56,006 nt of DNA from Planctomycetota bacterium (GTDB lineage Bacteria; Planctomycetota; MHYJ01; WSZJ01). Shown piece by piece: positions 147-55,060 of this stretch. The DNA is taken from positions 1-56,006 of the forward strand of contig JAIOPR010000010.1 of assembly GCA_021413805.1 (NCBI GenBank). Reading direction: 5' to 3'. The notes under the pieces were generated by a model. It saw only the letters and a list, made by a program, of their open reading frames with translations, had not been told where the DNA came from and made no database searches. Both the position numbers and the translations under genes were made by a program. Positions within the stretch are counted from its first letter, which is position 1. Each line of letters starts with the position of its first letter.

Positions 147-356
147 ATGGTCGTCTTCTGCGTCCGGTGTGATACGTCGCTTCCGCTGGCGGATGTGACG
201 GTCAAGAACGGCACGGAGTACACGAGTCCGGACTACCTGTGCCCGATGTGCCACCAGCCGGCGGCCCCTTCGGTGCCGGATGACCCGGAGGACGAGATTG
301 GCGTGGATGAGCAGAACGACCTGGTTGTGAAGGACGGCAAGGCCGCGCGACCGTAG
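147..356 (+). CDS. small zinc-ribbon protein (CxxC...CxxC) with acidic tail
   Basis: ATG at 147 follows AAGGAGG (135-141). MVVFCVRCDT...DYLCPMCHQP gives two CxxC pairs. The GTG at 21 in the ORF track would only add a basic leader. Confidence 0.55.
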   Translation: MVVFCVRCDTSLPLADVTVKNGTEYTSPDYLCPMCHQPAAPSVPDDPEDEIGVDEQNDLVVKDGKAARP

Positions 357-11179: not shown

Positions 11180-11926
11180 CTAGTGGGGACCGGTTCCGCG
11201 TTCCCGGGCGTCCGGCGGGCGCGGTCCGCCCTTCGTCACTGACAAGATGCGTCCGTCGTCCATCCGGGCGATGCGGTCCGCGAACTCGAAGATGCGCGCG
11301 TCGTGGGTGACGACGACGAGCGCACGGTCGGCACCCGCGGCGACTTCCCGCATCAGTTCCATCACCTTGTGGCCGGTCTCGTGGTCGAGCGAACTCGTGG
11401 GTTCGTCGCAGACGATCAGCCGCGGGTTGTGCACCAGCGACCGCGCAATCGCGACCCGCTGCTGCTGCCCGCCGGAGAGTTTCGATGGAAGCGTATTCCA
11501 GCGGTCGCCGATGCCGACGCGGTCGAGGAGCGCGCGGCCGCGGCGGACGGCCTCGGAGCGCCGCACGCCCGCGATCAGGAGCGGGACCGCCACGTTTTCG
11601 GCGATGGTGAGCGTCGGGATCAGGTTGAACTGCTGGAACACGAACCCGATGTTCTCGCCGCGGAAACGCGTCCGGCGGGAGCTGGACATTTCCCGGAGAT
11701 CCTCGCCGAAGACGCGGACTTCACCCGCGTCGTGGTCGAGGATCGCGGCGATGACCGAGATCAGCGTGGTCTTCCCGCAGCCGGAGGGGCCGACCAGCAT
11801 CAGCAGCTCCCCCTGCCGGACCTCGAGGTCAATCCCGCGAAGGGCCGTGACCTGCGACTGCCCTTCGCCGTAGGTCTTGGTGACCCCGACGCAGGAAACG
11901 GCGATCTCGGTGGCGGTTTCAACCAT
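11180..11926 (-). CDS. ABC transporter ATP-binding protein (MacB/DevA-like)
   Basis: Walker A GPSGCGKTT, signature LSGGQQQRVAIAR, Walker B LIVCDEPTSSLD. The true start is the ATG at 11926, not the 663-aa ORF in the track. Confidence 0.92.
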   Translation of the reverse strand: MVETATEIAVSCVGVTKTYGEGQSQVTALRGIDLEVRQGELLMLVGPSGCGKTTLISVIAAILDHDAGEVRVFGEDLREMSSSRRTRFRGENIGFVFQQFNLIPTLTIAENVAVPLLIAGVRRSEAVRRGRALLDRVGIGDRWNTLPSKLSGGQQQRVAIARSLVHNPRLIVCDEPTSSLDHETGHKVMELMREVAAGADRALVVVTHDARIFEFADRIARMDDGRILSVTKGGPRPPDARERGTGPH

Positions 11927-11928
11927 GG

Positions 11929-13089
11929 TCAGCCCTTGAACACGATGGCGGGCTCGGCTCGCATGACCGTGCGGATGCTGATCAGGGCCGAGAGCGTGCA
12001 GATGACCAGGATCGCGAACCCGCTGATGGTGAGGAGTTGCCACGTCAGCAGGAACGACAGCTCGGTGTCGTGGAGGAGTAACCCGAAGAGCGAGGCGGCG
12101 CCGACGCCGATTCCCCATCCGATGGCGCCGACGATCATCGCCTGGAGGAGAATCATCCCGAGGAGCTGCGAGTCGCGGGCTCCCATCGCCTTGAGCGCGG
12201 CGAAGTACTTGATGTTGTCGACCGTGAAATTGAAGAACGTCTGCCCCGCGATCGCCGTGCCGACGATGAAACCCAGCAGGACGGCGATCCCGAAATTGAT
12301 CGGGATGCCGGTGTATTTCATGAAGTAGCTGTACGTCAGGTCCTGGAATCCCTTCTGCGTGTACGCCGCCAGCCCGGTCGCCGCTTCGATCTTCCGGCAG
12401 AGTTCCAGCCTGTCCACGCCGTCTTTCGCCTTCACGAGCACGAACGACAGCGGTTTGCGTTCCTGGGGGGCGAACTGCGTGGCGCGCGAGTAGGTCGTGT
12501 AGATGACGGGCTGCGACTGGAACGTCCGCGTGGTCCGGCAGATCCCGACCACAATCGCCCGGTGGTCGTTCAGCTCCAGCGTGTCGCCGACCTTGATCGG
12601 GACAGCCTTCCCCCCCTTCTCGGTCGCCGCCCGCGCGAGTTTCCCTTCCGCGCCGACGATGTCCAGGATCACCGAGTCCGCGCGCCGCAGATCCTCCAGC
12701 CGGCCCTCGATCATGGTCCCCGGTCCGCCGACGAGCGTCGCGTCGTCGAGCCCGATCACGTGGCAAGTCTGGAACCCCCCGTTCTCGAGGCGGGCCTTGA
12801 GGAGCCCCTTGTAGAGCGGCATCGCCCAGTCGACGCCTTCCACCCCCCGTACGCGGTACAGCATCGTTTCCTGAAGCGGCTTGATGTCCTCGATCATGAG
12901 GACTTTCTTGTCCATCACCCAGATGTCGGGGCCGCCCGTGTCCGTGATGAACCCGAACGTCCGGTGCATCAGCCCTTCGAAGATTGCGGCCTGTTGCGTG
13001 ATGAGAAGCGACGCAAACGTCAGCCCCATGAGGATGCCGAGGTAGCGGGCGCGATCGCCCACGAGCATCTTGATGGCGACAAATTTCAC
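11929..13089 (-). CDS. ABC transporter permease (FtsX/DevC-like)
   Basis: Four-TM FtsX-type topology with a large periplasmic loop. The GTG start overlaps the TetR stop (GTGA). Confidence 0.85.
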   Translation of the reverse strand: MKFVAIKMLVGDRARYLGILMGLTFASLLITQQAAIFEGLMHRTFGFITDTGGPDIWVMDKKVLMIEDIKPLQETMLYRVRGVEGVDWAMPLYKGLLKARLENGGFQTCHVIGLDDATLVGGPGTMIEGRLEDLRRADSVILDIVGAEGKLARAATEKGGKAVPIKVGDTLELNDHRAIVVGICRTTRTFQSQPVIYTTYSRATQFAPQERKPLSFVLVKAKDGVDRLELCRKIEAATGLAAYTQKGFQDLTYSYFMKYTGIPINFGIAVLLGFIVGTAIAGQTFFNFTVDNIKYFAALKAMGARDSQLLGMILLQAMIVGAIGWGIGVGAASLFGLLLHDTELSFLLTWQLLTISGFAILVICTLSALISIRTVMRAEPAIVFKG

Positions 13090-13742
13090 CGCTGCGATTC
13101 CAGGGCCATGGCGCGGATGCCGGCAAGCGAGAAGTCGGTGACGTGCCGGGCAAGGCGTTCGAGATCTTCACGGCGATAGGTCAGCGAAGGATTGAGCTTC
13201 GAGATCACGGGCTGGCAGTGCCGGTAGAACAGGATCTGCCCGACGACCGAAGCGGCACAAGCCTGGATCAGCGGGGGAGGGGCGTCCGGGCCGAGGAATT
13301 CCGCGAGAAGCGTGTTCAGGGCATCTATCAGCGGCCGGAGCACGGTTTCCACCAGCCGGTCCAGCGCCACTGTCGGCTCCGCCATCTCCCTGGCCATCAA
13401 CGGCCCGTGCCAGGAGCCGGGACTCTGGTCGAGAACACGCAGGAAGAACGAGAACACGAAGGCGTAGAGGCGCTCGTCGGGGGAGGATGAAGGGCTCGTT
13501 CCCAGCGTCGGGGGATACTTCTGGAGGACCGAGCCGAGCTGGTCCTGAAGCACCGATTCGTAAAGGCGGACCTTGTCGCCAAAGTGGTAGTTGATGGCGG
13601 CGATGTTGACGCCCGCCTTGGCGCAGATGTCTCTTACCGTCGCACCGCGGAACCCCTGGGCGGCAAAGATCTCAGCGCCCGCCATCAAGAGGCGGTGGCG
13701 CGTTTCGGCAGACGTATGGGGCAGCTCGGTGGTCTGTGACAT
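13086..13742 (-). CDS. TetR/AcrR family transcriptional regulator
   Basis: The HTH is RLLMAGAEIFAAQGFRGATVRDICAKAGVNIAAINYHFGDK. ATG at 13742. First gene of the efflux operon. Confidence 0.88.
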   Translation of the reverse strand: MSQTTELPHTSAETRHRLLMAGAEIFAAQGFRGATVRDICAKAGVNIAAINYHFGDKVRLYESVLQDQLGSVLQKYPPTLGTSPSSSPDERLYAFVFSFFLRVLDQSPGSWHGPLMAREMAEPTVALDRLVETVLRPLIDALNTLLAEFLGPDAPPPLIQACAASVVGQILFYRHCQPVISKLNPSLTYRREDLERLARHVTDFSLAGIRAMALESQR

Positions 13743-13899: not shown

Positions 13900-16047
13900 A
13901 TGAATATCTCTCCCGACCTGGTCCTCCTCGCCAAAACAGGCGACCGCCGCGCCCTCGCAAGCCTCGTCGCGGCCACCCAGGACCCGCTCTTCCATTTCCT
14001 CAATCGCGAACTCGGTTCCGCCGCCGACGCCGAAGACGCCCTGCAGGAAACCTGGCGGCAGGCGATCCGCTCGCTCCCCGGACTGCGCGATCCCGCTTCA
14101 TTCCGCGGCTGGATCCATCGCATCGCCATCCGCGCGGCCGGCGACCTCGCCCTGGCCCGCCGCGCCCGACATCGCGTCGAGGAGAACGCTTCAAGGAATG
14201 AACCGGTCGAGGACTCGGCCATGGCCGGAGCGGAGCGTCAGGAGACCGCAGAACGAGTCCGGGCAGCGGTTGCGTCGCTCGAGCCCAACCTCAGGACCGC
14301 CGTCCGGCTGCGTTACGAGCAGGGACTGTCGTACGAGGAAATCGCGGCGGCGACGGAAAGCCAGTCCGGGACGGTGGGGAAGAGGCTTCACACGGCGCAC
14401 GAGCGGTTGCGTGAAGCGTTGGCGGGGGTGGGCGTGGTGGTGGCGCTGGCGGTGCTGGAGCGCGAATTGGGAGCCGCGGAGCGCGTGGCGGCGCCGGAAT
14501 CGGCGAAGCGTCAGCTCGCGCAGCTGGTGAGGGGACGGTCGGCGGCCACCCCGACGGCGGGGAGAAAGCGGGGAGCGGCCGTTGCGGCCATCGCGGCGCT
14601 GCTCCTGATCGGGATCGCCTTCGTCTGGAAACAGGGCGCGGGCCGGGGCGCGGAGAAGGACGCGCGGCCGGGGGCCGAGAGAGTCAGCGGTGTGAACACG
14701 CCACGCAGCGAGGGAGCCGGTTCGGCGCCCGTGGTCGCTGGGGAGGTCGCTTCCGCCACCAGGAAGCCGCCTCCCGCCGAGCTGGCGGCCGCACCTGCGG
14801 AGACGGGGCGTGTGACCGGCGTCGTTCGCGACGTGTCCTCCGGGGCGCCGATCGCCGGCGCGCGGGTCCAACTCCGGCCCATCGGAACCCCGGAAGGGCG
14901 AAAGCCGGTCTACGGCGCAACAGACGACCACGGCGCATTCGTGCTCGATGCCGCCCCGGGCGCCTACTTCATCGATGCATGGTCCGACGACTACCCGGCA
15001 TTTTCCGTCCGCGATTTCGTCGAGGACATCGTCGTCCGCGGCCGGACCGAGGCGAAACCGGAGGGCCAAGTCGAGGACAACCCGCTCTTCATCGGCGTTC
15101 TTGCAGGCGGCCACTCGCAGAGAGATCTCGGGCTCGTCGCCGGGAAGCACCTGGCCGGCCGGGTGGTGGACTCCCGGGGGCTTCCGGTCGAAGGCGCGAC
15201 CGTGGATCCAGTCTTCCTGACCGTGCACGGCAAGATCGGGTTCGCGGCGTGCGAATGCGCTCCTTACGGCGTGCCATTGGAGCGCGTGACCGGTGTCGAC
15301 GGGCGATTTGCGCTTCCCGCCGTCTGGCCCGCGGGAAACCTCACGGTGAAGGTGTCGTGTCCCGGCTACCGGGAGGACGATGTGACGCTGGCGATCGACG
15401 AGGCCCGCGGTGAGATGACCTTGAAGATTGAATCGGCCTCAGCCTTTTCGGGCACCGTCAGCGACGTCCACGGCCATCCCGTTCAAGGCGCGCTCGTCTT
15501 CGCCGGGGCTGGCGATCCTGCGACAGGCGGCGTCTTCCTCATGCGGATCAAGCAGGGCGTTGACGAATCAGGGCGCTTCTCCGACCCCGGCACTCGTTCC
15601 CCGAAGATCGTGCTCGCCTGGGCGCCCGGCTATGGCCTAGCGGCCGCCGATCTCTCGACCTGCGATGCCTCCAGGCTGGACCTGCGCCTCGCCGTGGCAG
15701 ACGGCCGCATCCGCGGCGTCGTCCGCGACGACGCCGGGCTCGTGGTGGCCGGGGCGCGCGTGACCGCCATCCTGGTCGGGGTCACCTTTGGCTCGGCCGC
15801 CGTTTGCATGCCCCTCAATGACAACTTCACCGGGGCGAAAGGCGACCTGATCGCATTTCCTGCGACTGGCCTGCCCGCCCCGACAGCGACCACCGCCGTC
15901 GATGGGGGATTCGAGCTCGCGGGCGTTCCCTCCGGGGCCGGCACGTTTGTCACGCTTCGCGTTGAAGTGCCCGGGTCCAAGCCGAAAGTCGTACGGGTTC
16001 CGGATGGGGGAAGCGCGGACGTCACGCTGGACACGGCGGCAAAGTAG
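13900..16047 (+). CDS. ECF sigma factor fused to a TM helix and four carboxypeptidase-regulatory-like (CarboxypepD_reg) domains
   Basis: Region 2 is DAEDALQETWRQAI..FRGWIHRIAIRAA. Region 4 is LRTAVRLRYEQGLSYEEIAAATESQSGTVGKRLHTAHERL. The TM helix is AAVAAIAALLLIGIAFVW. The motif G-V-D..G.P..GA.V then repeats four times. Confidence 0.8.
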   Translation: MNISPDLVLLAKTGDRRALASLVAATQDPLFHFLNRELGSAADAEDALQETWRQAIRSLPGLRDPASFRGWIHRIAIRAAGDLALARRARHRVEENASRNEPVEDSAMAGAERQETAERVRAAVASLEPNLRTAVRLRYEQGLSYEEIAAATESQSGTVGKRLHTAHERLREALAGVGVVVALAVLERELGAAERVAAPESAKRQLAQLVRGRSAATPTAGRKRGAAVAAIAALLLIGIAFVWKQGAGRGAEKDARPGAERVSGVNTPRSEGAGSAPVVAGEVASATRKPPPAELAAAPAETGRVTGVVRDVSSGAPIAGARVQLRPIGTPEGRKPVYGATDDHGAFVLDAAPGAYFIDAWSDDYPAFSVRDFVEDIVVRGRTEAKPEGQVEDNPLFIGVLAGGHSQRDLGLVAGKHLAGRVVDSRGLPVEGATVDPVFLTVHGKIGFAACECAPYGVPLERVTGVDGRFALPAVWPAGNLTVKVSCPGYREDDVTLAIDEARGEMTLKIESASAFSGTVSDVHGHPVQGALVFAGAGDPATGGVFLMRIKQGVDESGRFSDPGTRSPKIVLAWAPGYGLAAADLSTCDASRLDLRLAVADGRIRGVVRDDAGLVVAGARVTAILVGVTFGSAAVCMPLNDNFTGAKGDLIAFPATGLPAPTATTAVDGGFELAGVPSGAGTFVTLRVEVPGSKPKVVRVPDGGSADVTLDTAAK

Positions 16048-37414: not shown

Positions 37415-37762
37415 ATGGCTGATCCTGTCACCACCCCCTCCGGCCTCAAGTACGAAGACCTTGTCCCCGGGACCGGCGCTTCCCCCACCCCCGGCTCGAA
37501 CGTGAAAGTGCACTACACCGGGTGGCTGACGGACGGGAAGAAGTTCGACAGCTCCAAGGACCACGGGCAGCCGTTCGAATTCCCGATCGGGAAGGGGCGC
37601 GTGATCAAGGGATGGGACGAGGGAGTGGCGACGATGAAGATCGGCGGGAAGCGGAAGCTGACGATCCCGCCGGGGCTGGCGTACGGGGCGCAGGGCGCGG
37701 GCGGCGTGATCCCCCCGAACGCGACGCTGGTGTTCGAGGTGGAGCTGCTCGGCTTCAGGTAG
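37415..37762 (+). CDS. FKBP-type peptidyl-prolyl cis-trans isomerase
   Basis: VHYTGWLTDGKKFDSS...PFEFPIGKGRVIKGWDEG...IPPGLAYG...IPPNATLVFEVELL is the canonical FKBP domain. AGGAG SD. Confidence 0.92.
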   Translation: MADPVTTPSGLKYEDLVPGTGASPTPGSNVKVHYTGWLTDGKKFDSSKDHGQPFEFPIGKGRVIKGWDEGVATMKIGGKRKLTIPPGLAYGAQGAGGVIPPNATLVFEVELLGFR

Positions 37763-38864: not shown

Positions 38865-40547
38865 TTACTCGAGCGGGATCTTCTGCCGGGGCCGCTTGAG
38901 CAGCAGGGTCGTCCAGCTCACCCGCGCTTCCCGGTCATCCCCCGCGTGCCGCTTCACCGCCTCTCCCCGCGCTTTCGCCCGCGGCGACGACGCCGGCTCC
39001 CGCGTCGCCCGGTCCAGTTCCTCCGCGCTGAAATACGGGCGCGACTGCCCCGCTTCACGCAGGACGTGGCCGTAGCCGCGCGGGCCGATCTCATGGAAGC
39101 GGGTGTCGATTTTCTGCGCCGTGGCCGCGGTGGCGGTGCCGGCCGTCGCGACCGCCACGCCTCGCCAGCCGCCGTCCTCCGCGAGCGCCTCGGCCACCAG
39201 GTCGCGCTTCGCCACCCAGTCGAGGTCCTTGTAGAGGAGGTGCGGGTCCTCGGCGAGGGCGCCGAGGACGAAGCGCCATTTCGAGAGGATCTCGGCGGTT
39301 TCGGGCTCGGCGTTGGTGCCGCAGAATTTCTCGGCTTCCTCGAGGAAGTGGCGCTGGATTTCGAGTGCGGTCGCCGATCCGCCGGCGGCGAGCGGAATCG
39401 AGGCGCGGAGGGAAACGTCGCCGTCCACGATCGCGATGGCCTGGCGGAGGTCGCGCGGCGTGAAATCGCGAAGCGGGTGGCCGGCCTCGATCATGCGGAG
39501 GACGAGGTCGGTCGTGCCGAGCCTGAGCGCGGTCGCGAGGCGCGAGGTGTTCGAGTCGGCGAACAGCACCTGCAGCCGTTTCCTTCGTTTCCAGATGCTC
39601 CACGGCTCGCGCACGAAATTCTTGAGGTCGAAGACCGGGCGGGCGTCGTCGTCCCAGAAGATACCGGAGGCGACGCGGATGGCGGGGCCCTTGTGCGAAA
39701 GAGCGAGGCGCCCTTCGCCGGCCTCGACGCGGCCGGGGCCGCAGAAGACAAGGCGCGTGACGAGGTGGGGGAGGAGCAGCTGCCGCGTGCGGGGGAGAAC
39801 GATGAATCGCAGGAACAGGCTGTAGACGCGGATCCACGGGATTGTGACCGCGTAGGTCAGGTCCATGAGGCGCGTCAGCGACTCCTCCCTGAACGCTGCG
39901 CGTCCGAGCCCCACGATCCCCCGCGCCGCCGCCGCGAACGGCCGGCCGGCGCCCGGAAGGTGCGCGAGCGCCGTGCAGACGTGGTACGCAGCGGCGATGA
40001 AAAGCAGGAACGCGTAAAACATGACGATCAGCGCCACTTCCACCAGGAGCACGGGGATCCAGAACACCGGGAATACCAGCGCGACGAGCAGGCGCCGAAG
40101 CGCCCCCGGCGGCTCGTCGACTTCGTAGTTCTCGTGCGACCCCCACACGTTCCCCGCCGTGTCCGCCGCCGCCTTCCCGATCACCAGCTCCCCGTCAAAT
40201 CCGCGGGTCCGCAGCCGGAATTCCACCTCCTGGTGCACCCGCCCCAGAAGTTCGTCCTGCCCGTGGTGGTACCGCGCCGCTTCAAGCGCCCCGCGGCACT
40301 CGGGCGTCGCCATCTCCAGCAGACCCTTCGAAAACCTCGCCGTCGGCGCCTCGTAGTGCAGCAGCCCGCCCGTGGACAGGAAGATGCCGCTCTTCGGAAG
40401 CGCAGCCGGCAGCGTGGGGATCTCGGCGCGCACAGCCGCTTCCACAAGCTGGTAGATGTCGCGCGGAAGTGGCGCGCGGGCTCCGGGCTCGCGGGGCACC
40501 CAGGCGAGGGCGTACTCGGTCTCGACGCCGATCAGTCGGGGGTGCAT
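38865..40547 (-). CDS. Pup-ligase family protein (PafA/Dop homologue) with a ~110-aa hydrophobic insertion
   Basis: Family blocks: RLIGVETEYA, LEMATPEC, NVWGSHENY, LLPHLVTRLVFCGPGRV, LQVLFADSNTSRLATALRLGTTDLVLRMIEAG, ALEIQRHF, LDWVAKRDL and IDTRFHEI. Between HENY and LVTR lies LLVALVFPVFWIPVLLVEVALIVMFYAFLLFIAAAYHVCTALAHL plus further hydrophobic sequence. Confidence 0.88.
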   Translation of the reverse strand: MHPRLIGVETEYALAWVPREPGARAPLPRDIYQLVEAAVRAEIPTLPAALPKSGIFLSTGGLLHYEAPTARFSKGLLEMATPECRGALEAARYHHGQDELLGRVHQEVEFRLRTRGFDGELVIGKAAADTAGNVWGSHENYEVDEPPGALRRLLVALVFPVFWIPVLLVEVALIVMFYAFLLFIAAAYHVCTALAHLPGAGRPFAAAARGIVGLGRAAFREESLTRLMDLTYAVTIPWIRVYSLFLRFIVLPRTRQLLLPHLVTRLVFCGPGRVEAGEGRLALSHKGPAIRVASGIFWDDDARPVFDLKNFVREPWSIWKRRKRLQVLFADSNTSRLATALRLGTTDLVLRMIEAGHPLRDFTPRDLRQAIAIVDGDVSLRASIPLAAGGSATALEIQRHFLEEAEKFCGTNAEPETAEILSKWRFVLGALAEDPHLLYKDLDWVAKRDLVAEALAEDGGWRGVAVATAGTATAATAQKIDTRFHEIGPRGYGHVLREAGQSRPYFSAEELDRATREPASSPRAKARGEAVKRHAGDDREARVSWTTLLLKRPRQKIPLE

Positions 40548-40604
40548 GAAGGGCCTGGGGCGCGCAGGACCTCCGCCGAGGGGCGGAGGAGAAGGGCGGG
40601 GGAG

Positions 40605-40763
40605 TTACTCGCCGCCGCCCGGCACGATCGTCGCTTTGACGTACTCCACGGGCTGGGACTTCGCGTCCGTCGCGATCGCGGCGATGGCGGCCGCGACCAG
40701 ATCTTTCGGCGGGGCGGGCGGTTGCTGGATTGCGGGGGCTTCAGGCTTTTCTACGGGGGTCAT
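40605..40763 (-). CDS. Pup/UBact-like small protein (52 aa, C-terminal GGGE)
   Basis: GGAGAAGGAA lies 2 nt upstream of ATG 40763. The protein is MTPVEKPEAPAIQQPPAPPKDLVAAAIAAIATDAKSQPVEYVKATIVPGGGE-stop. It lies 57 nt upstream of the PafA/Dop homologue on the same strand. Confidence 0.65.
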   Translation of the reverse strand: MTPVEKPEAPAIQQPPAPPKDLVAAAIAAIATDAKSQPVEYVKATIVPGGGE

Positions 40764-41803: not shown

Positions 41804-43408
41804 CTACCCTGCGGGTTTTGGAGTCCCTGCGGCTTTCGCGGCGGCTTCGTCGTCCTCGAGGATCGCGTCCAGGCCGAAGTAGTGTTTGCGGACGACGCGG
41901 TCGCGGTCGACCCACCACATGGAGCGGGCGCGGTCGTTGATGCGCTCGACGAACTTGCAGAGGACGACTTTCTGGCCGCGGATTTCGACTTCCTGTTCGC
42001 CGTGGCACTCGATCCCGCAGGGAGCGAGTTCGGTCGCCGTCCGCGCGAGGCGCTGCACGATGCGGCGCGAGCCGGGGGACTGGGAGAACGTCGCGATCCA
42101 CTGGCTCAGCCCGAACCCGGGGACGAAATCGTCGGGAAGCGCGCGCTTGTAGGGTTTTCCCTGCCAGGTGCCGATGAATCCGGTCTCGATGTGGCGGAGA
42201 GTGAAGAACGGCTGGCCGAGCTCGGTCTGGATGCCGTCCTGCATGAAATGGGCGTTGGCGATCTTGTCCTGGGCGCCGAAGACGACGACCGCGGAGGTTT
42301 TGTGCCACGTGTTGTCCTGGCCGAGGTAGTGCGTCTCGGTCTCGAGCATCGCCCCTTCGCCGGTCGTGTTGACGAGCTGCGACTCCCACCCGGCCGGCGC
42401 GCCGTTGTTCCAGAGCGAGTACCAGTACTTTCCTTTCCGGTAGACCCCGCGCTCGCCGAGTTCGCGGGTCGGCGCCGGCCCCGCGGCCGGGATCACCAGC
42501 TCGGGTCGCCGCGCCGGTTCGCCCGAAGGCGGCACCACCGCGGAATTCGCGCCCGGCGGCGGCGGCGCCGTCGCCCGCCCCATGATCTGCGAAGGAGAAT
42601 CCACCACCCCCGGGGTCGTCCCGCGTACTCCCGATCCCGGCGCACCCGGGACCCCCGGCGGCCGCGTCCCAGGTCCCGAAATCTGCGTCGATTGCCGCCC
42701 GGTCGCCCCCATCACCTTCGTCGGGTCGTCAAACGCCGCGATCCCGCCCGCCCCCATCGTCTGCCGGTCCCGCGCCACCGGCGCGCCCTTCGCCCCCGAC
42801 TCCGACGACTCCAGCACCGCATTCAGCCCGAAATTCACCCGCACCACCGTCCGGTCCGAATCCACCCACCACCGGTTCCGGTCCTTCCCCCCCACCCGCT
42901 CCACGAAATGCCACGCCTTGATTAGCTTTCCACCCACCTGCTGGTCCTCTTCGCCCACACACTCCACCCCCGCCGACGCCGGGATGTCCGCCCCCATCGG
43001 CAGCCGCGAGAAGGCCACGAGCGATTGCGACTCGAGCGGAAGCGTCGCCACCCACTCGGCGTTGCCGAAGTTGGGAATGAAGTCGGCAGGGAGGATCCTG
43101 GTGAAGGGTTTCCCTGCCCACGTCCCGCTGAAGACCTCGCCATTCCGGCGGATCTGGAATCCCATGACGCCGTCGCGCTGGTAGCGCACCGCCTCGAGCC
43201 GCGCGCCTCCCGTGCCGAACGCCAGCGTCGCGACGCTCTCCGACATCCCGCCCGCCGCCTTGTACGACGTCAGCGTCTCGATCGTCGCGCTTCCGTCCGA
43301 CACCGCGCTGACCACGTGGCGTTCGTAGCCCACCCGCTGCCCGTTCTGGTCCCACAGGGAGTACCAGCGGACGCCGCTTCGAAAAGGCGCTCGTTTCACG
43401 TTCGGCAT
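41804..43408 (-). CDS. hypothetical protein with two homologous ~210-aa domains joined by a Gly/Pro-rich linker
   Basis: Domain 1 (VRWYSLWDQNG...WWVDSDRTVVRVNFGLNAVLE) and domain 2 (KYWYSLWNNGA...WWVDRDRVVRKHYFGLDAILE) align along their whole length. Confidence 0.7.
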   Translation of the reverse strand: MPNVKRAPFRSGVRWYSLWDQNGQRVGYERHVVSAVSDGSATIETLTSYKAAGGMSESVATLAFGTGGARLEAVRYQRDGVMGFQIRRNGEVFSGTWAGKPFTRILPADFIPNFGNAEWVATLPLESQSLVAFSRLPMGADIPASAGVECVGEEDQQVGGKLIKAWHFVERVGGKDRNRWWVDSDRTVVRVNFGLNAVLESSESGAKGAPVARDRQTMGAGGIAAFDDPTKVMGATGRQSTQISGPGTRPPGVPGAPGSGVRGTTPGVVDSPSQIMGRATAPPPPGANSAVVPPSGEPARRPELVIPAAGPAPTRELGERGVYRKGKYWYSLWNNGAPAGWESQLVNTTGEGAMLETETHYLGQDNTWHKTSAVVVFGAQDKIANAHFMQDGIQTELGQPFFTLRHIETGFIGTWQGKPYKRALPDDFVPGFGLSQWIATFSQSPGSRRIVQRLARTATELAPCGIECHGEQEVEIRGQKVVLCKFVERINDRARSMWWVDRDRVVRKHYFGLDAILEDDEAAAKAAGTPKPAG

Positions 43409-43537: not shown

Positions 43538-44740
43538 CTACCCGACCAGCTTCAGCACGGCGAAGATCGCCGCACGCACCTTCACCCGCTTCACCTCAAG
43601 CTCCAGCCGGTCCTTCCCGAATTCCAGGATCTCGTCGTAGCCGTTCGCGTAGGGAAGCGGGTAATCGACGACGTGGTCGGGCGTGACGCCTTTGCCTTCG
43701 AGCTTGTCGCCCTTGGTGTAGACGCGGCCGTCCACGACGGGGCAGAGGAGACAGGATCCGTCGCCGAGCGGGAAGAACTGCGAGCCGAGCACGGCGCCCT
43801 CCGTGGTGCGGCCGACTGCGGGGCCGAGGTGCTCGCGCATCCACGACCACGTGAAGATTTCCTTCGCGGAGCGCGACCGGTCGTCCACGAGCAGCACGAC
43901 GGGTTTGTCCCAGGCGCCGGTGCGGAAGAGGCCGAGGATGGCGTTCATGACGATCGGTGATCCGCCGCGGCCGCGGACGTCGAGGAGCAGGCCGTCGCAC
44001 TGGGAGAATTCCTTCGCCATGGCGCTCGAGACGGTGCCGAAGATCTGGGAGACGAGGAAGTGCCAGGTGTGGACGTAGCCGAATTTCATGCCGTGGTACT
44101 TGATGACGCGGACGCTGTTCTGTGTCGCGATGACGCCGGAGATCGCCTCGGGCGTGACGGTGACAGTGCGCGGCTTGCCCTTCTCGGACTCGACCGTCAT
44201 CTCGACCGGGTCGGTCCCCTCGAGGCGCACGTAATACAGCGGCGGCCAGGGCAGCCCCGGGTCGCACCCTTCATCTTCCAGCCGCCCCGACTTCTTCGCA
44301 GCCACGCCCTCGATCTTCACGATCCGGTCGCCGCGCTTGATCCCCGCCTTCACCGCCGGCCCGCCCTCGAGCAGGCTCCGCACGAAAATCCCGCCGTCGA
44401 TCTCGATCGCCTCAAACCCCAGCTGCGGCCGCGGTTCCGAGCCCAGTTCCGGCAGCATGTGCTCCTGGTACGCGTCCTTCGACATCAGCACCAGGTGCGA
44501 CGCCTTCAACTCGCCCAGCATCCTGTTCGTGATCTCGATCAGCTCCGTCTCCGTCTTCGCTTCCTTCGCCAGCGGCCGGTATTTGTCCTTCAGCGCGTCC
44601 CACGTCTCGCCCACCTGCTTCTTGTCGTAGAAGTTCGCCTTCGTCGTCTTCCACGCTTCGTCGAACGTCTTGATCCGCGGTTTCTCCGCGAACGCCGAAA
44701 CGGACAGGACGAGCGACAGGCAGATGGCGATGAGGCGCAT
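43538..44740 (-). CDS. S41 family peptidase (tail-specific/C-terminal processing protease-like) with PDZ
   Basis: Signal peptide MRLIAICLSLVLSVSAFA, PDZ GGPAVKAGIKRGDRIVKIEGV, and LLVDDRSRSAKEIF containing the S41 Ser/Lys region. Confidence 0.85.
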   Translation of the reverse strand: MRLIAICLSLVLSVSAFAEKPRIKTFDEAWKTTKANFYDKKQVGETWDALKDKYRPLAKEAKTETELIEITNRMLGELKASHLVLMSKDAYQEHMLPELGSEPRPQLGFEAIEIDGGIFVRSLLEGGPAVKAGIKRGDRIVKIEGVAAKKSGRLEDEGCDPGLPWPPLYYVRLEGTDPVEMTVESEKGKPRTVTVTPEAISGVIATQNSVRVIKYHGMKFGYVHTWHFLVSQIFGTVSSAMAKEFSQCDGLLLDVRGRGGSPIVMNAILGLFRTGAWDKPVVLLVDDRSRSAKEIFTWSWMREHLGPAVGRTTEGAVLGSQFFPLGDGSCLLCPVVDGRVYTKGDKLEGKGVTPDHVVDYPLPYANGYDEILEFGKDRLELEVKRVKVRAAIFAVLKLVG

Positions 44741-50691: not shown

Positions 50692-52341
50692 TCAGGCGCG
50701 GGACATCGGGATCCGGATCCCGTGCTTCTTCGCCGCCTTCTTCGCCTCCTCATACCCCGCATCCGCATGCCGGGCGATGCCGATCCCGGGGTCGTTGGTG
50801 AGGACGAGGGAAGCGCGTTTCGACGACTTGGCGCTGCCGTCGACGCAGACGACCTGTCCCGCGTGGATCGAATAGCCGATGCCGACGCCGCCGCCGTGGT
50901 GGACGGAGACCCAGGTCGCGCCGCTCGCGGTGTTCAGCAGGGCGTTCAGGACGGGCCAGTCGGCGATGGCGTCGCTTCCATCTTTCATGGCCTCGGTTTC
51001 GCGGTTCGGTGAAGCGACGCTTCCCGTGTCCAGGTGGTCGCGGCCGATGACGAAGGGGGCCTTGACCTTCTTCTTCGCGACGAGGCGGTTCAGCAGTTCG
51101 CCGAACCTGGCGCGTTCGCCCTGGCCGAGCCAGCAGATGCGGGCGGGGAGGCCCTGGAATTTGACGCGTTCGCGGGCCATGCGGATCCAGTTCACCAGGG
51201 ATTCGTTGTCGCCGAATTCCTTGAGGACGAGGTCGTCGGTGATCGCGATGTCGTGCGGGTCGCCGGAGAGCGCGGCCCAGCGGAACGGCCCGCGCCCTTC
51301 GCAGAACAGGGGCCGCACATACGCCGGCACGAACCCCGGGTAGTCGAACGCGTTTTCGACGCCGGCGAGTTTCGCCTGGCCGCGGAGGTTGTTGCCGTAG
51401 TCGAAGACGACGGCGCCGGCTTTCTGCATGGCGAGCATGGCGCGGCAGTGGACGGCCATGGACTCCATCGAGCGGCGGACGTATTCCTGCGGGGCCTTGG
51501 TGCGGAGGTTCGCAGCCAGCTCGAGCGTCATGCCGTTGGGGACGTAGCCGTTGAGCGCATCGTGGGCGCTGGTCTGGTCGGTCACGACGTCGGGGATGAC
51601 GCCGCGCTTCACGAGCTCGGGGAAGACGTCCGCGCAGTTGCCGACGAGGCCGACGGAGAGCGCTTCCTTCTTTTGACGCGCTGCGTCAATCCAGCGGAGC
51701 GCTTCGTCGAGCGACGATGTCATCTTGTCGCAGTACGCCTTGTCGATCCGCCGCTGGATCCGCGCCGGGTCCACCTCGACGCACAGGATCGCCGCGCCCG
51801 CCATCGTTCCCGCGAGCGGCTGCGCGCCGCCCATTCCCCCGAGGCCGCCGGTCAGGACGAATTTCCCGGCGAGCGAGCTGCCGAAGTGCTTCTTCCCGCA
51901 CGCCGCGAACGTCTCGTACGTGCCCTGCAGGATTCCCTGCGTGCCGATGTAAATCCACGACCCCGCCGTCATCTGCCCGAACATCGTCAGCCCCAGCGCT
52001 TCCAGCCGCCGGAATTCGTCCCATGTCGCCCAGTGCGGGACCAGGAGCGAATTCGCGATCAGGACGCGCGGCGCCATGTCGTGCGTCCGGAAGACGCCGA
52101 CGGGTTTTCCGCTCTGCACGAGCAGCGTCTCGTCGTCTTTCAGCGTCTTCAGCGTCGCCAGGATCGACTTCAGGCACGCCTCGTTCCGCGCTGCCTTCCC
52201 GCTTCCCCCGTACACCACGAGCCGCTGCGGGTCCTCCGCGACCTCGGGATCCAGGTTGTTCTGCAGCATCCGGTACGGCGCTTCCGTCTGCCACGACCGG
52301 CAGCTCAGTTTCGTGCCCCGCGGCGCTCGGATCGTTTTCAT
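50692..52341 (-). CDS. hutU: urocanate hydratase
   Basis: Near-full-length match to conserved HutU blocks: [45 protein letters not shown] and [18 protein letters not shown]. The start is ATG 52341, not the 1001-aa track ORF. Confidence 0.95.
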
Positions 52342-52434
52342 GCGCTGATTCTGCGGCGCGCCTTCCCGCGGGGAAAGAATTTCGAGGGGAGCGATAATTC
52401 TGAATCGAAGAGCGCCAATCGCTACTCTGGGTCG

Positions 52435-53598
52435 ATGACTGAACCGGTCGCCATCCTGAGAGCCCAGTATGCCGTCGCCCGCGCGCTTGCCGAGTCGGGG
52501 TCGCTCGGGGAAGCGACGCCGTCGATCCTGCGCGAAGTCTGCGCCGCGCTCGCGTGGGACGTCGGCGTTCTCTGGCGCGTCGATGCCGCTTCGCATGAGT
52601 TGCGGTTCGTGGATTTCTGGAGCCGGCCCGGGGTGAAGACGGCGGAATTCGAAGCGGAGTGCCGGGCGCGGATGTTCGGGATCGGGGAGGGGCTGCCGGG
52701 GCGGGTGTTGAGGGACGCGCGGCCGGCGTGGATTACCGATGTGCAGGCGGACCCGAATTTTCCGCGGGCGCCGATCGCGATGGAGCCGGGGTTGCGGGCG
52801 GCGTTCGCGTTTCCCGTGCGGCTCGGCAACCATGTTTTCGGCGTCATGGAGTTCTTCAGCCGGGAATCGCGCGAGCCTGACGAGGAGCTGCTGAGCGTCA
52901 TGGAGGGGATCGGGAGCCAGGTCGGGCAGTACGACGTGCGGCGCCGTGCGGAGGCCGAGCTGGCCGACGCCCACGCGCGGCTGGCGCAGCAGCACGCGGC
53001 GCTCGAGGACGCGAACCGCCGTCTCTCCGAGCTCGCCATCACCGACGTCCTCACGGGCATCCCGAACCAGCGCGCGTTCCGGCTGCGGCTGGAAGCGCTT
53101 CTCGCAGAAGGCGTCCGGGGTCGCAAATTCGCCCTCGCGATCGCGGACATCGACCAGTTCAAGCTGCTCAACGACGCGCACGGCCACCCCGCGGGCGACG
53201 ATGTCCTGCGCGCCGTGGCGACGACGCTTCGGGACGGCCTTCGCCGCACCGATTTCGTCGCGCGCTACGGCGGCGAGGAATTCGCGATCCTGCTGGTGGA
53301 TGTCGATCTCGAGAAGGCCGTCGAGGTCGTCGAAGTGCTCCGGCGCCGCGTCTCCGGCATCGCGAACCCCTGGCGCCGCGTCACCGCGAGCTTCGGCGTC
53401 GCCGACTTCGGCCTCGGCCGCAACAAGGGCGACTCGCTCTTCGAGGCCGCCGACAAAGCCCTCTACCGCGCCAAGCGCCGCGGGCGGAACCGCGTGGAGG
53501 CCGCGCCGCTGAAGCGCAAAATTGCGTCGCCGAAGGCAGCGATTGCGAAGAAGAAAAAAGGAAGCCGGAGGCCGAAGCCCTCGAAAAAGCGCCGCTGA
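52435..53598 (+). CDS. GAF domain-containing diguanylate cyclase (GGDEF) with basic C-terminal tail
   Basis: The GAF region is [18 protein letters not shown]...FAFPV. The I-site is RRTD. The active site is RYGGEEF. The tail is [16 protein letters not shown]. Confidence 0.9.
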
Positions 53599-53674
53599 AG
53601 CTGCCGCGCCCGGTTCGCCTCTTCCGTAGATTCCCCTCGCCGCCCGCGCCAAACCTGCTACTCTCCGCGCACTC

Positions 53675-55060
53675 ATGACGAGCTTCAAAGATCTCAATCT
53701 GATCCCGGAGCTTCTCCAGGCGGTCGCGGAAGAAGGTTACACGTCGCCGACGCCGATCCAGGAGAAGGCGATCCCGCTGCTGTTGGACGGGAAAGACGTG
53801 CTCGGCTGCGCCCAGACGGGCACGGGCAAGACTGCGGCGTTCACGCTGCCGATTCTTCAGCGCCTGGCCGCGGAGCCGGCGATTGTGGGGAAGCGGGAGC
53901 CGCGGTGCCTGATCCTGGCGCCGACGCGCGAGCTGGCGCAGCAGATCGGCGACAGCGTCACGGCGTACGGGCGGCGGACGGCGATCACGGGGACGACGAT
54001 TTATGGCGGCGTATCGCAGGGGGCGCAGGCCCGGGCGGTGCGCGCCGGGGTGGACGTGCTCGTCGCGACGCCGGGCCGGCTGCTCGACCTCATGGGACAG
54101 GCGATCGTCCCGCTGAATTCGGTCCGCTACCTCGTGCTCGACGAAGCCGACCGCATGCTCGACATGGGCTTCCTCCCCGACGTCCTCCGCATCGTCCGCA
54201 AAGTCCCGCTTCGCAGGCAGACGATGCTGTTCAGCGCCACGCTTTCCCGCGAAATCGTCGAGCTCGCCAAGGAACTTCTCCACGAACCCGTCCGCGTCGA
54301 TGTCGCGCCGTCCTCGACGACCGTCGAGCGCGTCCGGCAGGTCGTCTACCATGTCTCCCGGAACGCCAAAGGCCCGCTCCTTGACCGCCTTGTCGCCATG
54401 CCCGACGTCGAACGCGCCCTCGTCTTCACGCGCACCAAGCGCGGCGCCAACCAGGTCGTCGAGCGCCTGAACCTCGGCCCCATCCGCGCCGATGTCATGC
54501 ATGCCGACCGCGGGCAGAGCGCGCGTGAGAAGAGCCTCGAGAGCTTCAAGGTCGGCACCACCCGCGTCCTCGTCGCAACGGACATCGCTTCGCGCGGCCT
54601 CGACGTGGACAACATCACGCACGTCATCAACTTCGACGTCCCCGACGAGCCCGACGCCTACGTCCACAGGATCGGCCGCACGGCCCGCGCCGGCGCGCAC
54701 GGCCTGGCGATCACGCTGTGCGACCGCGAGGAAGAAGGCAAGCTGGCGGCGATCGAGAAGGCCATCCGGTTGAAGATCCCGGAGGGTGAGATGCCCGGGA
54801 AAGCGGCGAGCGGGCGGGCGGGGGGGCATGCGGGCGCGAAGGCTGGCGCGCATACTCCTGCGGCGCCGCACGGCCACGCGCCGGCCCATGCTCACGCCCC
54901 GGTTCACGCGCACGCCCCGGCTTACCCTGCGCCTCCCGCTCCCGACGCGGCCCCCGCGCGCGACGAACGCCACGGCCCCGGCCCCGCACCGCTCACTGCT
55001 TCGGGCGAAGAGCCGAAGAAAGTCGGCCGGCTGCGCCAGCGCCACCCGCGGCGGCGGTAA
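53675..55060 (+). CDS. DEAD-box ATP-dependent RNA helicase (RhlE-like) with His/Ala/Pro-rich tail
   Basis: The Q-motif is GYTSPTPIQ. Further motifs are [36 protein letters not shown] and [10 protein letters not shown]. Confidence 0.93.

Follow-up and report, generated by a model that had tools for sequence, protein, structure and literature searches.

What is understood of pupylation comes almost wholly from Actinobacteria, in which the pathway supplies the Mpa-proteasome. Iyer, Burroughs and Aravind (Biol Direct 3:45, 2008; PMC2588565; hereafter Iyer 2008) reported that the Pup ligases of Rhodopirellula and Plesiocystis carry transmembrane (TM) insertions directly C-terminal to core strand 4, and proposed that the insertions anchor these enzymes to the membrane. 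The initial annotation of the DNA described here, which took a membrane-embedded Pup ligase to be undescribed, was mistaken on this point. The proposal dates from 2008, and we present our locus as a well-supported instance of a neglected system rather than as a discovery; a search for experimental tests of membrane-type Pup ligases found none in the searchable literature, subscription-only papers not being covered.

The locus lies in the window, the whole 56,006-nucleotide stretch of planctomycete DNA that was analyzed (contig JAIOPR010000010.1). Our reading is that it probably constitutes a two-gene cassette, in which a Pup-like modifier ending in GGE is paired with a PafA/Dop-family ligase whose long helical hairpin anchors the enzyme at the membrane.

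The ligase gene and its small partner

The two genes and the catalytic motifs of the ligase are located as follows.

40605..40763, (-) strand: Pup-like small modifier gene, 52 aa, C-terminus ...EYVKATIVPGGGE, read directly from the sequence
38865..40547, (-) strand: Pup-ligase family (PafA/Dop-like) gene, 560 aa plus stop, from Pfam PF03136, AF2 and Foldseek
40512..40529, (-) strand: GhExE ATP/Mg2+ motif GVETEY, aa 7-12, in core strand 1, from alignments
40350..40352, (-) strand: Glu66, where PafA/Dop have their catalytic Asp, invariant in the clade, placed by profile alignment
40125..40142, (-) strand: GSHENY, the [HQ]x[NH] motif of core strand 4, aa 136-141, from alignments and an AF2 strand at 137-144

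The larger open reading frame matched the Pfam HMM PF03136 with an E-value of 2.6e-70 (238 bits against a cut-off of 25), and the match covered positions 1-440 of the 441 in the profile. With the NCBIfam equivalogs it scored 171 bits for PafA (TIGR03686) and 146 bits for Dop (TIGR03688), below the respective cut-offs of 551 and 492 bits, and by these scores the gene encodes a PafA/Dop-family enzyme that is neither PafA proper nor Dop proper. Dop and PafA were also its sequence matches in the PDB, and a profile of the clade to which it belongs retrieved Dop (1.3e-93) slightly better than PafA (4.7e-80). The AF2 model, built with 131 sequences in the alignment, had a pLDDT of 94.3 with all five models concordant, and gave Foldseek TM-scores of 0.83 to Dop 4b0r and 0.73-0.77 to PafA (4B0T/4BJR), those for 4bjr being 0.75-0.77. 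The core PafA/Dop fold, that of a GS-like carboxylate-amine ligase with a C-terminal domain, is thus predicted to be intact around the insertion, and the initial annotation is in our view right to argue that the two halves of the fold have to lie on the same side of the membrane.

The catalytic motifs are retained in the ligase, with Glu replacing the catalytic Asp. In the GhExE motif, which like the [HQ]x[NH] motif was defined by Iyer 2008 (PMC2588565), residues E9, T10 and E11 were invariant or nearly so in alignments A1-A3, as G136 and E139 were invariant in the strand-4 block. Glu66, R265 and R527 did not vary across 131 sequences, and profile alignment set the "hyE" of the clade opposite the "LYLD" of Corynebacterium glutamicum PafA. 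The alpha-loop reads AIRVASGIFWDDDARP and matches the signature residues of neither PafA nor Dop; the PafA signature (H..WEG.SSA..RS), for which we looked in the ligase, was absent. A Dop loop of about 40 residues was likewise absent after helix 1, where the ligase carries just some 9 extra residues.

The modifier gene lies 57 nt upstream of the ligase start, its ATG is preceded by GGAGAAGGAA, and its product ends in GGGE. It had been overlooked by the initial annotation. This gene is strictly conserved with the ligase: directly upstream of the latter, 79 of the 80 genome loci carry a GGE-terminated small ORF of 46-83 aa and all five contig loci an equivalent one, and a GGQ terminus was never seen among the upstream small ORFs of the 80 genome loci. 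Profile searches did not connect these small proteins with Pup; none of 38 members matched the Pup HMM PF05639, even at E ≤10, none matched an NCBIfam model, and a profile built from them did not retrieve Pup from the PDB. Aligned by hhalign to a genuine Pup, one with a Pfam Pup match, they gave a collinear but weak alignment (probability 28%, P 6e-4).

Further partners were sought in the neighborhood. No proteasome (PF00227), AAA/Mpa or second PafA/Dop gene was present among 30 of the larger genes of the window, or within 10 kb on either side in five related loci. All-against-all BLAST of the neighbors, in search of a conserved third gene, returned no family present in more than 12 of the 80 loci; an Acyl_transf_3 gene lies downstream of the ligase in the closest relatives alone, and is absent from the window. 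Around the cassette no promoter-like or terminator-like sites were found, and a GC hairpin in the spacer between the two genes was not significant (z -1.41). The minimal unit is two genes, modifier and ligase.

The hydrophobic insertion and its helical pairing

The initial annotation had reported a hydrophobic insertion within the catalytic domain of a PafA/Dop homologue, on the basis of three peptides, LLVALVFPVFWIPVLLVEVALIV, MFYAFLLFIAAAYHVCTALAHL and YAVTIPWIRVYSLFLRFIVL, all of which are found in the 560-aa ORF at 38865..40547 (-); the interval to which it assigned them, 39783-40112, corresponds to aa 146-255 of the ligase. The insertion was borne out. GSHENY and LLPHLVTR (aa 257-264) are separated by a spacer of 115 residues, as compared with about 12 residues between the same two blocks in Dop 4b0r and 13-15 in canonical PafA/Dop (the 17 of 21 sequences that could be parsed by one fixed motif pattern). 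In Kyte-Doolittle (KD) profiles with 19-residue windows and a threshold of ≥1.6, the values above threshold were confined, within the whole ligase, to aa 148-198 (peak 2.84) and 233-251 (1.61). The insertion lies directly after core strand 4, beginning 4-7 residues past HENY.

A survey of homologues, proposed at the outset, gave a clear answer. The insertion was present in all 13 near and distant homologues first compared, and in each of the 80 genome loci surveyed, which were drawn from the 252 species genomes with a relative. An exhaustive profile search of 1.84 billion representatives yielded 149 parsed clade proteins, every one with a spacer of at least 82 aa and all but one (148/149) with a KD peak of at least 1.6. 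The clade comprises at least 150 clusters at 50% identity, and a genome scan found relatives in at least 252 species genomes, mostly of Planctomycetota, but also of Acidobacteriota and Myxococcota-like MAGs, and complete genomes with the cassette include that of Anatilimnocola sp. NA78 (NZ_CP187419); word-indexed homology searches, which returned just 14 clade clusters, understate the family relative to the profile search and the genome scan. Judged by sequence, the insertion defines a large and coherent clade. Databases label these proteins "proteasome accessory factor".

Within the insertion four elements can be distinguished.

39966..40103, (-) strand: Arm A, one unbroken helix that is hydrophobic throughout, aa 149-194, predicted as the chief membrane segment (AF2, KD, hydrophobic moment)
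39888..39965, (-) strand: hairpin tip and amphipathic helix B, aa 195-220, with conserved Pro198 and a charged region of variable length (AF2, coevolution)
39801..39887, (-) strand: Arm C, an amphipathic, moderately hydrophobic return helix, aa 221-249, which includes the third stretch of the initial annotation (AF2, KD19 1.61)
39780..39794, (-) strand: basic cluster at the hairpin base, aa 252-256, PRTRQ (family consensus RRxRR), before the canonical helix LLPHLVTR

AF2 placed Arm A in one unbroken helix from 149 to 194 (pLDDT 88-96) in all five models, followed by a loop at 195-200 and a helix at 201-218. The hydrophobic moment of Arm A was low (0.02-0.17) and its mean hydrophobicity 0.72-0.89, as compared with moments of 0.57 for helix B and 0.41-0.43 for Arm C. 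In the family profile Arm A runs for about 37-41 residues nearly without charges, with Pro165 in 86% of members, and in 218 diverged sequences it held a mean of about one charged residue, 42% of them having none. The tip and helix B region, in which indels are present, averages 4.5 K+R and 3.6 D+E across the family; Arm C carries Pro237 in 83% and Arg247 in 58%. At the base, K/R frequency was 0.48-0.86 at four of the five positions 252-256 across the family, and the net charge of the C-terminal flank was +2.64.

The pairing of these helices was read from direct coupling analysis (DCA), the top raw pairs of which held gap-column artefacts (columns 160/161, 195/196 and 279) and were filtered by column occupancy. 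A strong antiparallel ridge (z up to 10.3) was found at i+j 408-416, where residues 173-194 pair with 214-236; within it, the 195-220 region coevolves with 188-194, and Arm C with 173-179. Model and coevolution together predict that the insertion is a long antiparallel helical hairpin, in which the hydrophobic helix 149-194 packs against amphipathic return helices at 201-249.

This arrangement differs from the one first proposed for the sequence, in which a tight two-span TM hairpin is made up of 152-174 and 175-197 and turns at about 172-175, and the segments that follow, including 232-251, are cytoplasmic amphipathic helices. A hydrophobic run of 40-46 residues is the length expected of a tight helical hairpin, there is a slight dip in hydrophobicity at reference positions 170-174, where some homologues have E..K or D-R, and the K/R-rich stretch 195-226 would remain cytoplasmic, which fits the positive-inside rule; several TM segments were also predicted in 2008, presumably on the same basis. 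Against a split at about 174/175, however, stands the unbroken helix that AF2 returned from a deep alignment, and no antiparallel ridge was detected in DCA at i+j of about 345 (z 0.1-0.7), where such a turn would place it. Moreover, the couplings of 173/174 with 232-236 and of 179 with 226-229 would join the supposed periplasmic turn to a supposed cytoplasmic helix. We consider the tight two-span topology unlikely, if still the most credible of the alternatives. The amphipathic third stretch described in the initial annotation is the return arm of the hairpin, paired with Arm A.

A bundle of four TM segments, also considered for the clade, appears unlikely, the would-be TM3 (195-226) averaging 4.5 K/R and 3.6 D/E, and DCA giving no contact ridges between segments 1 and 2 or 3 and 4.

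Proposed membrane anchoring, probable activity and alternatives

From hydropathy, charge pattern and conservation we infer that the hairpin most probably serves to hold the enzyme in or on the cytoplasmic membrane and leaves the two halves of its catalytic domain on the cytoplasmic side. The insertion, of about 100 residues, interrupts the catalytic domain after strand 4, is predicted to project from the PafA/Dop fold and has conserved Arg clusters at its base, and the hairpin would either span the bilayer twice, with the tip across, or sit monotopically in one leaflet. Because Arm A, at about 40 residues, is too long for one perpendicular span, while the return arm is borderline hydrophobic (KD 1.61) and the tip rich in K/R (mean 4.5), a simple two-span arrangement and a simple monotopic one each agree imperfectly with the insertion. 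Two further points tell against the reading as a whole: Glu stands where the catalytic Asp is expected, and the small protein reaches neither the Pup model of Pfam nor Pup in the PDB.

If the anchored enzyme works as PafA does, it would spend ATP on phosphorylating the terminal Glu of the modifier at its gamma-carboxylate, and the modifier would then be ligated to lysines of membrane-proximal targets. Since its terminus is already GGE, the modifier would be made ready for use and no deamidase would be required, and with no linked proteasome or Mpa the outcome would be proteasome-independent. The action of the enzyme as a ligase and not a hydrolase, the kind of targets and this outcome are all put forward here as suppositions, proteasome genes having been assessed locally; because the clade scores closer to Dop and its alpha-loop bears neither signature, the case for ligase activity is made from the logic of the system.

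It is on this ground that a Dop-like hydrolase, acting as a de-conjugase or amidase and not as a ligase, has to be weighed. The clade is marginally nearer Dop than PafA in both sequence and structure, and a published tree sets the planctomycete homologues outside both PafA and Dop. On the other hand, the Dop loop is missing, with some 9 residues in its place, and the partner always ends in Glu and never in Gln, so that no deamidation is needed. The enzyme is, furthermore, the sole PafA/Dop homologue in the cassette, and is reportedly single-copy in Planctomycetes, so a hydrolase would have nothing to remove in the absence of a ligase; the ancestral enzyme has also been argued to be a ligase. 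Taken together, these points make a hydrolase quite improbable.

The anchoring role of the hairpin can be disputed in its turn, by supposing that the insertion is a hydrophobic stalk through which a soluble enzyme oligomerizes, the helix being buried between subunits with no membrane anchor. A long two-armed helical stalk is indeed what the AF2 model depicts, the return arms are amphipathic, and dimers or larger assemblies are common among carboxylate-amine ligases (Iyer 2008, PMC2588565). But Arm A is hydrophobic on every face over about 40 residues with few charges, and basic clusters lie at the base of the hairpin, and because it is nearly uncharged and basic-flanked in this way, exposure to lipid is to be expected rather than a coiled coil with polar heptad positions. 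We regard the stalk as highly improbable.

Since a membrane hairpin would hold the active site against the surface of the membrane, and neither a proteasome nor any other partner is linked, one may also imagine that the GGE modifier is put not on protein lysines but on a membrane amine, such as the headgroups of phosphatidylethanolamine or ornithine-type aminolipids, or, in a related alternative, that a periplasm-exposed hairpin tip gates cytoplasmic tagging by envelope signals. These are long shots; were the first true, lipid tagging would be a bacterial analogue of Atg8-PE lipidation.

Finally, the insertion might be ascribed to faulty assembly, a frameshift or a gene fusion in a metagenomic contig, an idea suggested solely by the uncultured, metagenome-like origin of the sequence. 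It is refuted to near certainty by the recurrence of the architecture in over 200 independent sequences, which come from different phyla and projects, as well as by the continuous, uninterrupted frame, a uniform GC3 of 0.89 like that of the neighboring genes, and an AF2 model that is confident throughout.

Comparison with described systems

In the membrane-anchored cassette that we favor, the modifier is like Pup (PF05639) in its size of about 50-65 aa, its position directly upstream of the ligase and its GG-E C-terminus, and the putative [D/E]-[Y/F]-[L/V] helix that precedes its tail can be aligned, weakly, in collinear order with ...EEFVKGFVQKGGQ of Pup. It differs from Pup in having no significant Pfam or PDB match, a tail longer by one residue (VP-x-GGE) that always ends in Glu, and an unrelated N-terminal half.

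With PafA (C. glutamicum 4B0T/4BJR) the ligase shares the fold, the GhExE, [HQ]ExN and arginine motifs, an adjacent GG[E/Q] modifier and the lack of a Dop loop. In contrast to PafA, which is soluble, it has an invariant Glu for the catalytic Asp, a hydrophobic hairpin of 100 residues and no PafA alpha-loop signature; identity to PafA is at most about 30%, and there is no Mpa, proteasome or Dop partner nearby. Dop (Acidothermus cellulolyticus 4B0R, 5LRT, 7OXY) is the best PDB match in sequence, by the clade profile, and in structure, and has the same core motifs, but the ligase has neither a Dop loop, some 40 residues long in Dop, nor the alpha-loop residues of Dop, carries the hydrophobic insertion, and has a partner without need of deamidation.

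The closest counterparts are the ligases of Rhodopirellula baltica and Plesiocystis pacifica (Iyer 2008), which have the same hydrophobic insertion after core strand 4, an adjacent Pup-like gene with a G[EQ] terminus and no linkage to proteasome genes, all as found here; the lineages also match (Planctomycetota and Myxococcota-like), as does the anchoring hypothesis. Where 4 TM segments were counted in 2008, modeling and coevolution point here to one long hydrophobic helix with amphipathic return helices, and where a linked membrane-protein gene was described, no third gene is conserved among our loci. The clade also exceeds by far, in size and in taxonomic breadth, the two genomes known in 2008, and includes Acidobacteriota. 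In it a single PafA/Dop-like enzyme with a conserved hydrophobic hairpin is strictly coupled to a modifier that already ends in GGE, and no proteasome genes were found in the vicinity. The published picture is refined in three respects: four TM segments give way to a predicted long helical hairpin, a Glu replaces the catalytic Asp, and the minimal unit consists of two genes.

A Pup-ligase core and its insertion

Two genes of the window are considered here:

40605..40763, reverse strand: Pup-like ORF, 52 aa, preceded by a good ribosome-binding site; the ligase starts 57 nt downstream on the same strand
38865..40547, reverse strand: PafA/Dop-family ORF ("the ligase"), 560 aa, enclosing 39783-40112 (aa 146-255)

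The ligase frame is uninterrupted, and its GC3 (0.89) is in line with that of neighbouring genes. Pfam Pup_ligase (PF03136) covers the protein over its full length (238 bits), while against the NCBIfam equivalogs it scores far too low for PafA (171 bits, cut-off 551) or Dop (146 bits, cut-off 492). An AlphaFold2 model from a 131-sequence alignment had a pLDDT of 94.3 and a pTM of 0.93, with five models in agreement, and Foldseek placed it on Dop (4b0r, TM 0.83) and PafA (4bjr, TM 0.75-0.77), followed by the GCS2-type ligases YbdK and 1tt4. Given the confidence of the model and this placement, the PafA/Dop core is predicted to be intact around the insertion.

In alignments, the insertion-bearing (membrane-type) relatives of the ligase keep the motifs that Iyer, Burroughs and Aravind 2008 (PMC2588565) gave for the superfamily, namely GhExE as GVETEY, strand-4 [HQ]x[NH] as HEN, and the arginines, and Glu66, invariant in this clade, occupies the position of the catalytic Asp of C. 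glutamicum PafA ('LYLD'). Alignment with PafA and Dop revealed no Dop loop in the ligase, and its alpha-loop fits the signature residues of neither enzyme as tabulated by Hecht et al. 2020, in agreement with the use of planctomycete homologues by those authors as an outgroup to both.

The initial annotation had proposed a large hydrophobic insertion at 39783-40112, and this was confirmed: the three peptides it quoted were found exactly, GSHENY (aa 136-141) and LLPHLVTR (aa 257-264) lie 115 residues apart, and Kyte-Doolittle (KD) 19-residue windows reach 1.6 only at aa 148-198 (peak 2.84) and, marginally, at 233-251 (1.61). The canonical spacer is short: one fixed motif pattern was able to parse 17 of 21 canonical PafA/Dop sequences, and in these it spans 13-15 residues; in Dop (4b0r) the matching blocks are ~12 residues apart.

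AlphaFold2 predicted strand 137-144, a continuous helix 149-194 (arm A, pLDDT 88-96), a loop at 195-200, helices 201-218 (B) and 221-249 (C), and then the canonical helix 252-264; a model from 13 sequences agreed. Mean-field DCA of 218 unique insertion sequences (Neff 197, gappy columns removed) produced an antiparallel ridge at i+j = 408-416 (z = 10.3, 7.2, 5.4), with pairs 192-214, 188-217/220, 179-226..229 and 173/174-232..236. These helices and this ridge show the insertion to be a long helical hairpin of two arms, the tip falling at ~195-205. The hairpin of helices 152-174 and 175-197 proposed initially is not supported, the modelled helix 149-194 being unbroken and a ridge for a turn at ~172-175 (i+j ~345) being absent (z 0.1-0.7). 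Helices B and C of the window ligase are amphipathic (hydrophobic moment 0.41-0.57), and the third, amphipathic stretch of the initial reading is the hairpin's return arm.

A family-averaged profile with per-region counts begins with a basic N-flank (net charge +1.4), followed by a hydrophobic arm of ~40 residues that is nearly charge-free (mean 0.7 K/R and 0.35 D/E; zero charged residues in 42% of the 218 sequences) and has Pro165 in 86% of sequences. A conserved Pro198 separates this arm from a tip of variable length that is highly charged (mean 4.5 K/R and 3.6 D/E), and the moderately hydrophobic return arm of ~26 residues (Pro237 in 83%, Arg247 in 58%) is followed by an RRxRR-like cluster (net charge +2.6) running into the canonical helix. 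Arm A of the window ligase is hydrophobic all around, with a hydrophobic moment of 0.02-0.17 and a mean hydrophobicity of 0.72-0.89.

Distribution of the clade and the two-gene cassette

The survey of homologues that the initial annotation recommended showed the insertion to be shared by a large clade. All 13 homologues aligned over their full length have it, at identities from 72% down to 30%, and canonical PafA/Dop in that alignment are without it. At least 150 of 1.84 billion cluster representatives matched when these were searched exhaustively with a profile, nearly all of those listed fitting the insertion-bearing profile end to end; the spacer is at least 82 aa (median 119) in 149/149 parsed clade proteins, and the KD peak at least 1.6 in 148 of them. 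Scanning GTDB species genomes located a relative in 252. Planctomycetota (Pirellulaceae, Planctomycetaceae, Gemmataceae) make up most of the best 80, among them Anatilimnocola sp. NA78 with a complete genome; the rest are Acidobacteriota, one Leptospiraceae MAG, and MAGs that carry the label 'Deltaproteobacteria' or 'Proteobacteria'. The insertion is present in all 80 (89-138 aa, KD peaks 1.96-3.55). Clade proteins are named in databases 'proteasome accessory factor PafA2 family protein', 'proteasome accessory factor A' or hypothetical. The insertion defines a clade, and is no peculiarity of the window contig.

The 52-aa product of the upstream gene ends in ...EYVKATIVPGGGE. A small ORF of this kind lies upstream of the ligase in 5/5 related contigs examined and in 79 of the 80 loci from the best-matching genomes, usually with ~46-83 aa and the C-terminal consensus [D/E]-[Y/F]-[L/V]-x-[E/D]-x-x-V-P-x-G-G-E; no Gln-ending versions occur among the surveyed loci. 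The sole locus of the 80 without a GGE-terminated small ORF within 900 nt upstream is in a Proteobacteria MAG (L084, SYOX01000180.1), and in a Gemmataceae MAG (L080) the small protein ends ...RVAASGE. Searches of Pfam, NCBIfam and PDB returned no Pup sequence match for the family. Profile comparison with genuine Pup, taken from a Nesterenkonia Mpa-Dop-Pup-PafA locus, aligned the conserved C-terminal region collinearly with the ligase-binding helices of Pup, weakly (probability 28%, P 6e-4). Iyer et al. 2008 (PMC2588565) took the small proteins of Rhodopirellula and Plesiocystis to be Pup orthologues. The small protein is called Pup-like here.

The 57-nt spacer between the two genes holds an 8-bp GC-only hairpin (CCUCCGCC / GGCGGAGG; 40570-40589, reverse strand). 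Compared with shuffled sequences, its folding energy lacks significance (z -1.41); the hairpin could still tune how much modifier is made per ligase.

No 20S proteasome subunit, Mpa-type AAA ATPase or second PafA/Dop was found among 30 of the larger genes predicted in the window, nor within 10 kb on each side at five related loci. All-against-all comparison of neighbours at the 80 loci revealed no third conserved gene; since no other family occurs in more than 12 loci, the conserved unit is a two-gene cassette of Pup-like gene and ligase.

An Acyl_transf_3 membrane protein gene overlaps the ligase 3' end in the closest relatives and is missing from the window. An FKBP-type prolyl isomerase gene (37415-37762, forward) lies two genes from the ligase, likewise in close relatives L001 and L004; FKBP genes directly follow pafA in the Micrococcales comparison loci (L091, Nesterenkonia, 11563-13211; L092, Micrococcus, 11495-12975), and Iyer et al. 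2008 (PMC2588565) reported such linkage in actinobacterial Pup neighbourhoods. As FKBP was not seen at distant membrane-type loci, this proximity may be coincidence. The two comparison loci have Mpa-Dop-Pup-PafA in succession (L091 6468-11491; L092 6219-11446). No proteasome subunit genes separate pup from pafA, and the Pfam families listed for the 21-kb loci include none of the proteasome; these would be actinobacterial pupylation systems with no 20S core next to them. A 534-aa protein without a Pfam match (41804-43408, reverse) has an obvious internal tandem duplication (for example YSLWDQNGQRVGYE... / YSLWNNGAPAGWE... and KAWHFVERVGGKDRNRWWVD / CKFVERINDRARSMWWVD); it, DUF72 and an S41/Tricorn_C1/PDZ peptidase (43538-44740) are kept upstream of the cassette in the closest relatives only. 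In a 1001-aa ORF (50692-53697, reverse) urocanase domains are confined to aa 456-990, and the L004 urocanase has 552 aa; the length of its N-terminal part probably reflects an ORF call run too far in high-GC DNA, not a true fusion. A 384-aa ORF (4629-5783, forward) has a ClpP-family protease domain at aa 234-383 only, its N-terminal 230 residues lacking a Pfam match, and is either a call with an over-extended start or an unusual extended ClpP. A 715-aa protein (13900-16047, forward) joining N-terminal ECF sigma-70 regions 2 and 4 to CarboxypepD_reg-like domains is an uncommon sigma-factor fusion.

Proposed membrane placement and function

Given that the ~40-residue helix is uniformly hydrophobic and nearly charge-free, with arginine clusters at its core-proximal end, and that the character of this arm rather than its sequence is conserved across phyla, the insertion is most likely a membrane anchor. 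The tethering proposed in the initial annotation is plausible, and was anticipated by Iyer et al. 2008; the hairpin split it put forward is unsupported. Both halves of the catalytic domain would lie on one side of the membrane, because the fold could not otherwise form; as ATP and the modifier are found in the cytoplasm, the domain would lie there.

In one possible arrangement, a monotopic one, the hairpin would be embedded in the cytoplasmic leaflet and helices B and C would sit at the interface. This agrees with arm A being so long, with a return arm that is amphipathic and borderline hydrophobic, and with a tip rich in K/R, but is unusual for a helix hydrophobic on all faces. Alternatively, arm A might cross outward and arm C return; such a two-span topology agrees with a hairpin and its basic base, but is strained by the very three features that the monotopic arrangement accommodates.

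By homology, the ligase would put a phosphate on the terminal Glu of the modifier, at the gamma-carboxylate, and then pass the modifier on to an amine. Lysines of proteins in or close to the membrane are the parsimonious targets, and with a GGE terminus no Dop-type deamidase would be needed. As no proteasome or Mpa genes were found linked to the cassette at the loci examined, the outcome of tagging would be regulatory, or non-proteasomal in some other way. That the modifier is instead conjugated to an amine lipid of the membrane, or that tagging is gated by the envelope, is very improbable.

Relation to known systems

The initial annotation knew of no membrane-embedded Pup-ligase family member, which was wrong: Iyer, Burroughs and Aravind 2008 (PMC2588565) had reported TM insertions just past core strand 4 in the Pup ligases of Plesiocystis and Rhodopirellula and suggested that they anchor the enzyme to the membrane, with Pup and Pup ligase unlinked to proteasome genes in both. 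The literature searched yielded no experimental work on membrane-type Pup ligases. The window ligase belongs to a known, computationally described kind, and the system is under-studied rather than new. What is added here is how large and taxonomically broad the clade is, a GGE partner that is nearly universal in a minimal unit of two genes with no conserved third, the Asp-to-Glu swap at the catalytic-base position, and evidence that, whereas the earlier description had four TM segments, the clade would have one long helical hairpin.
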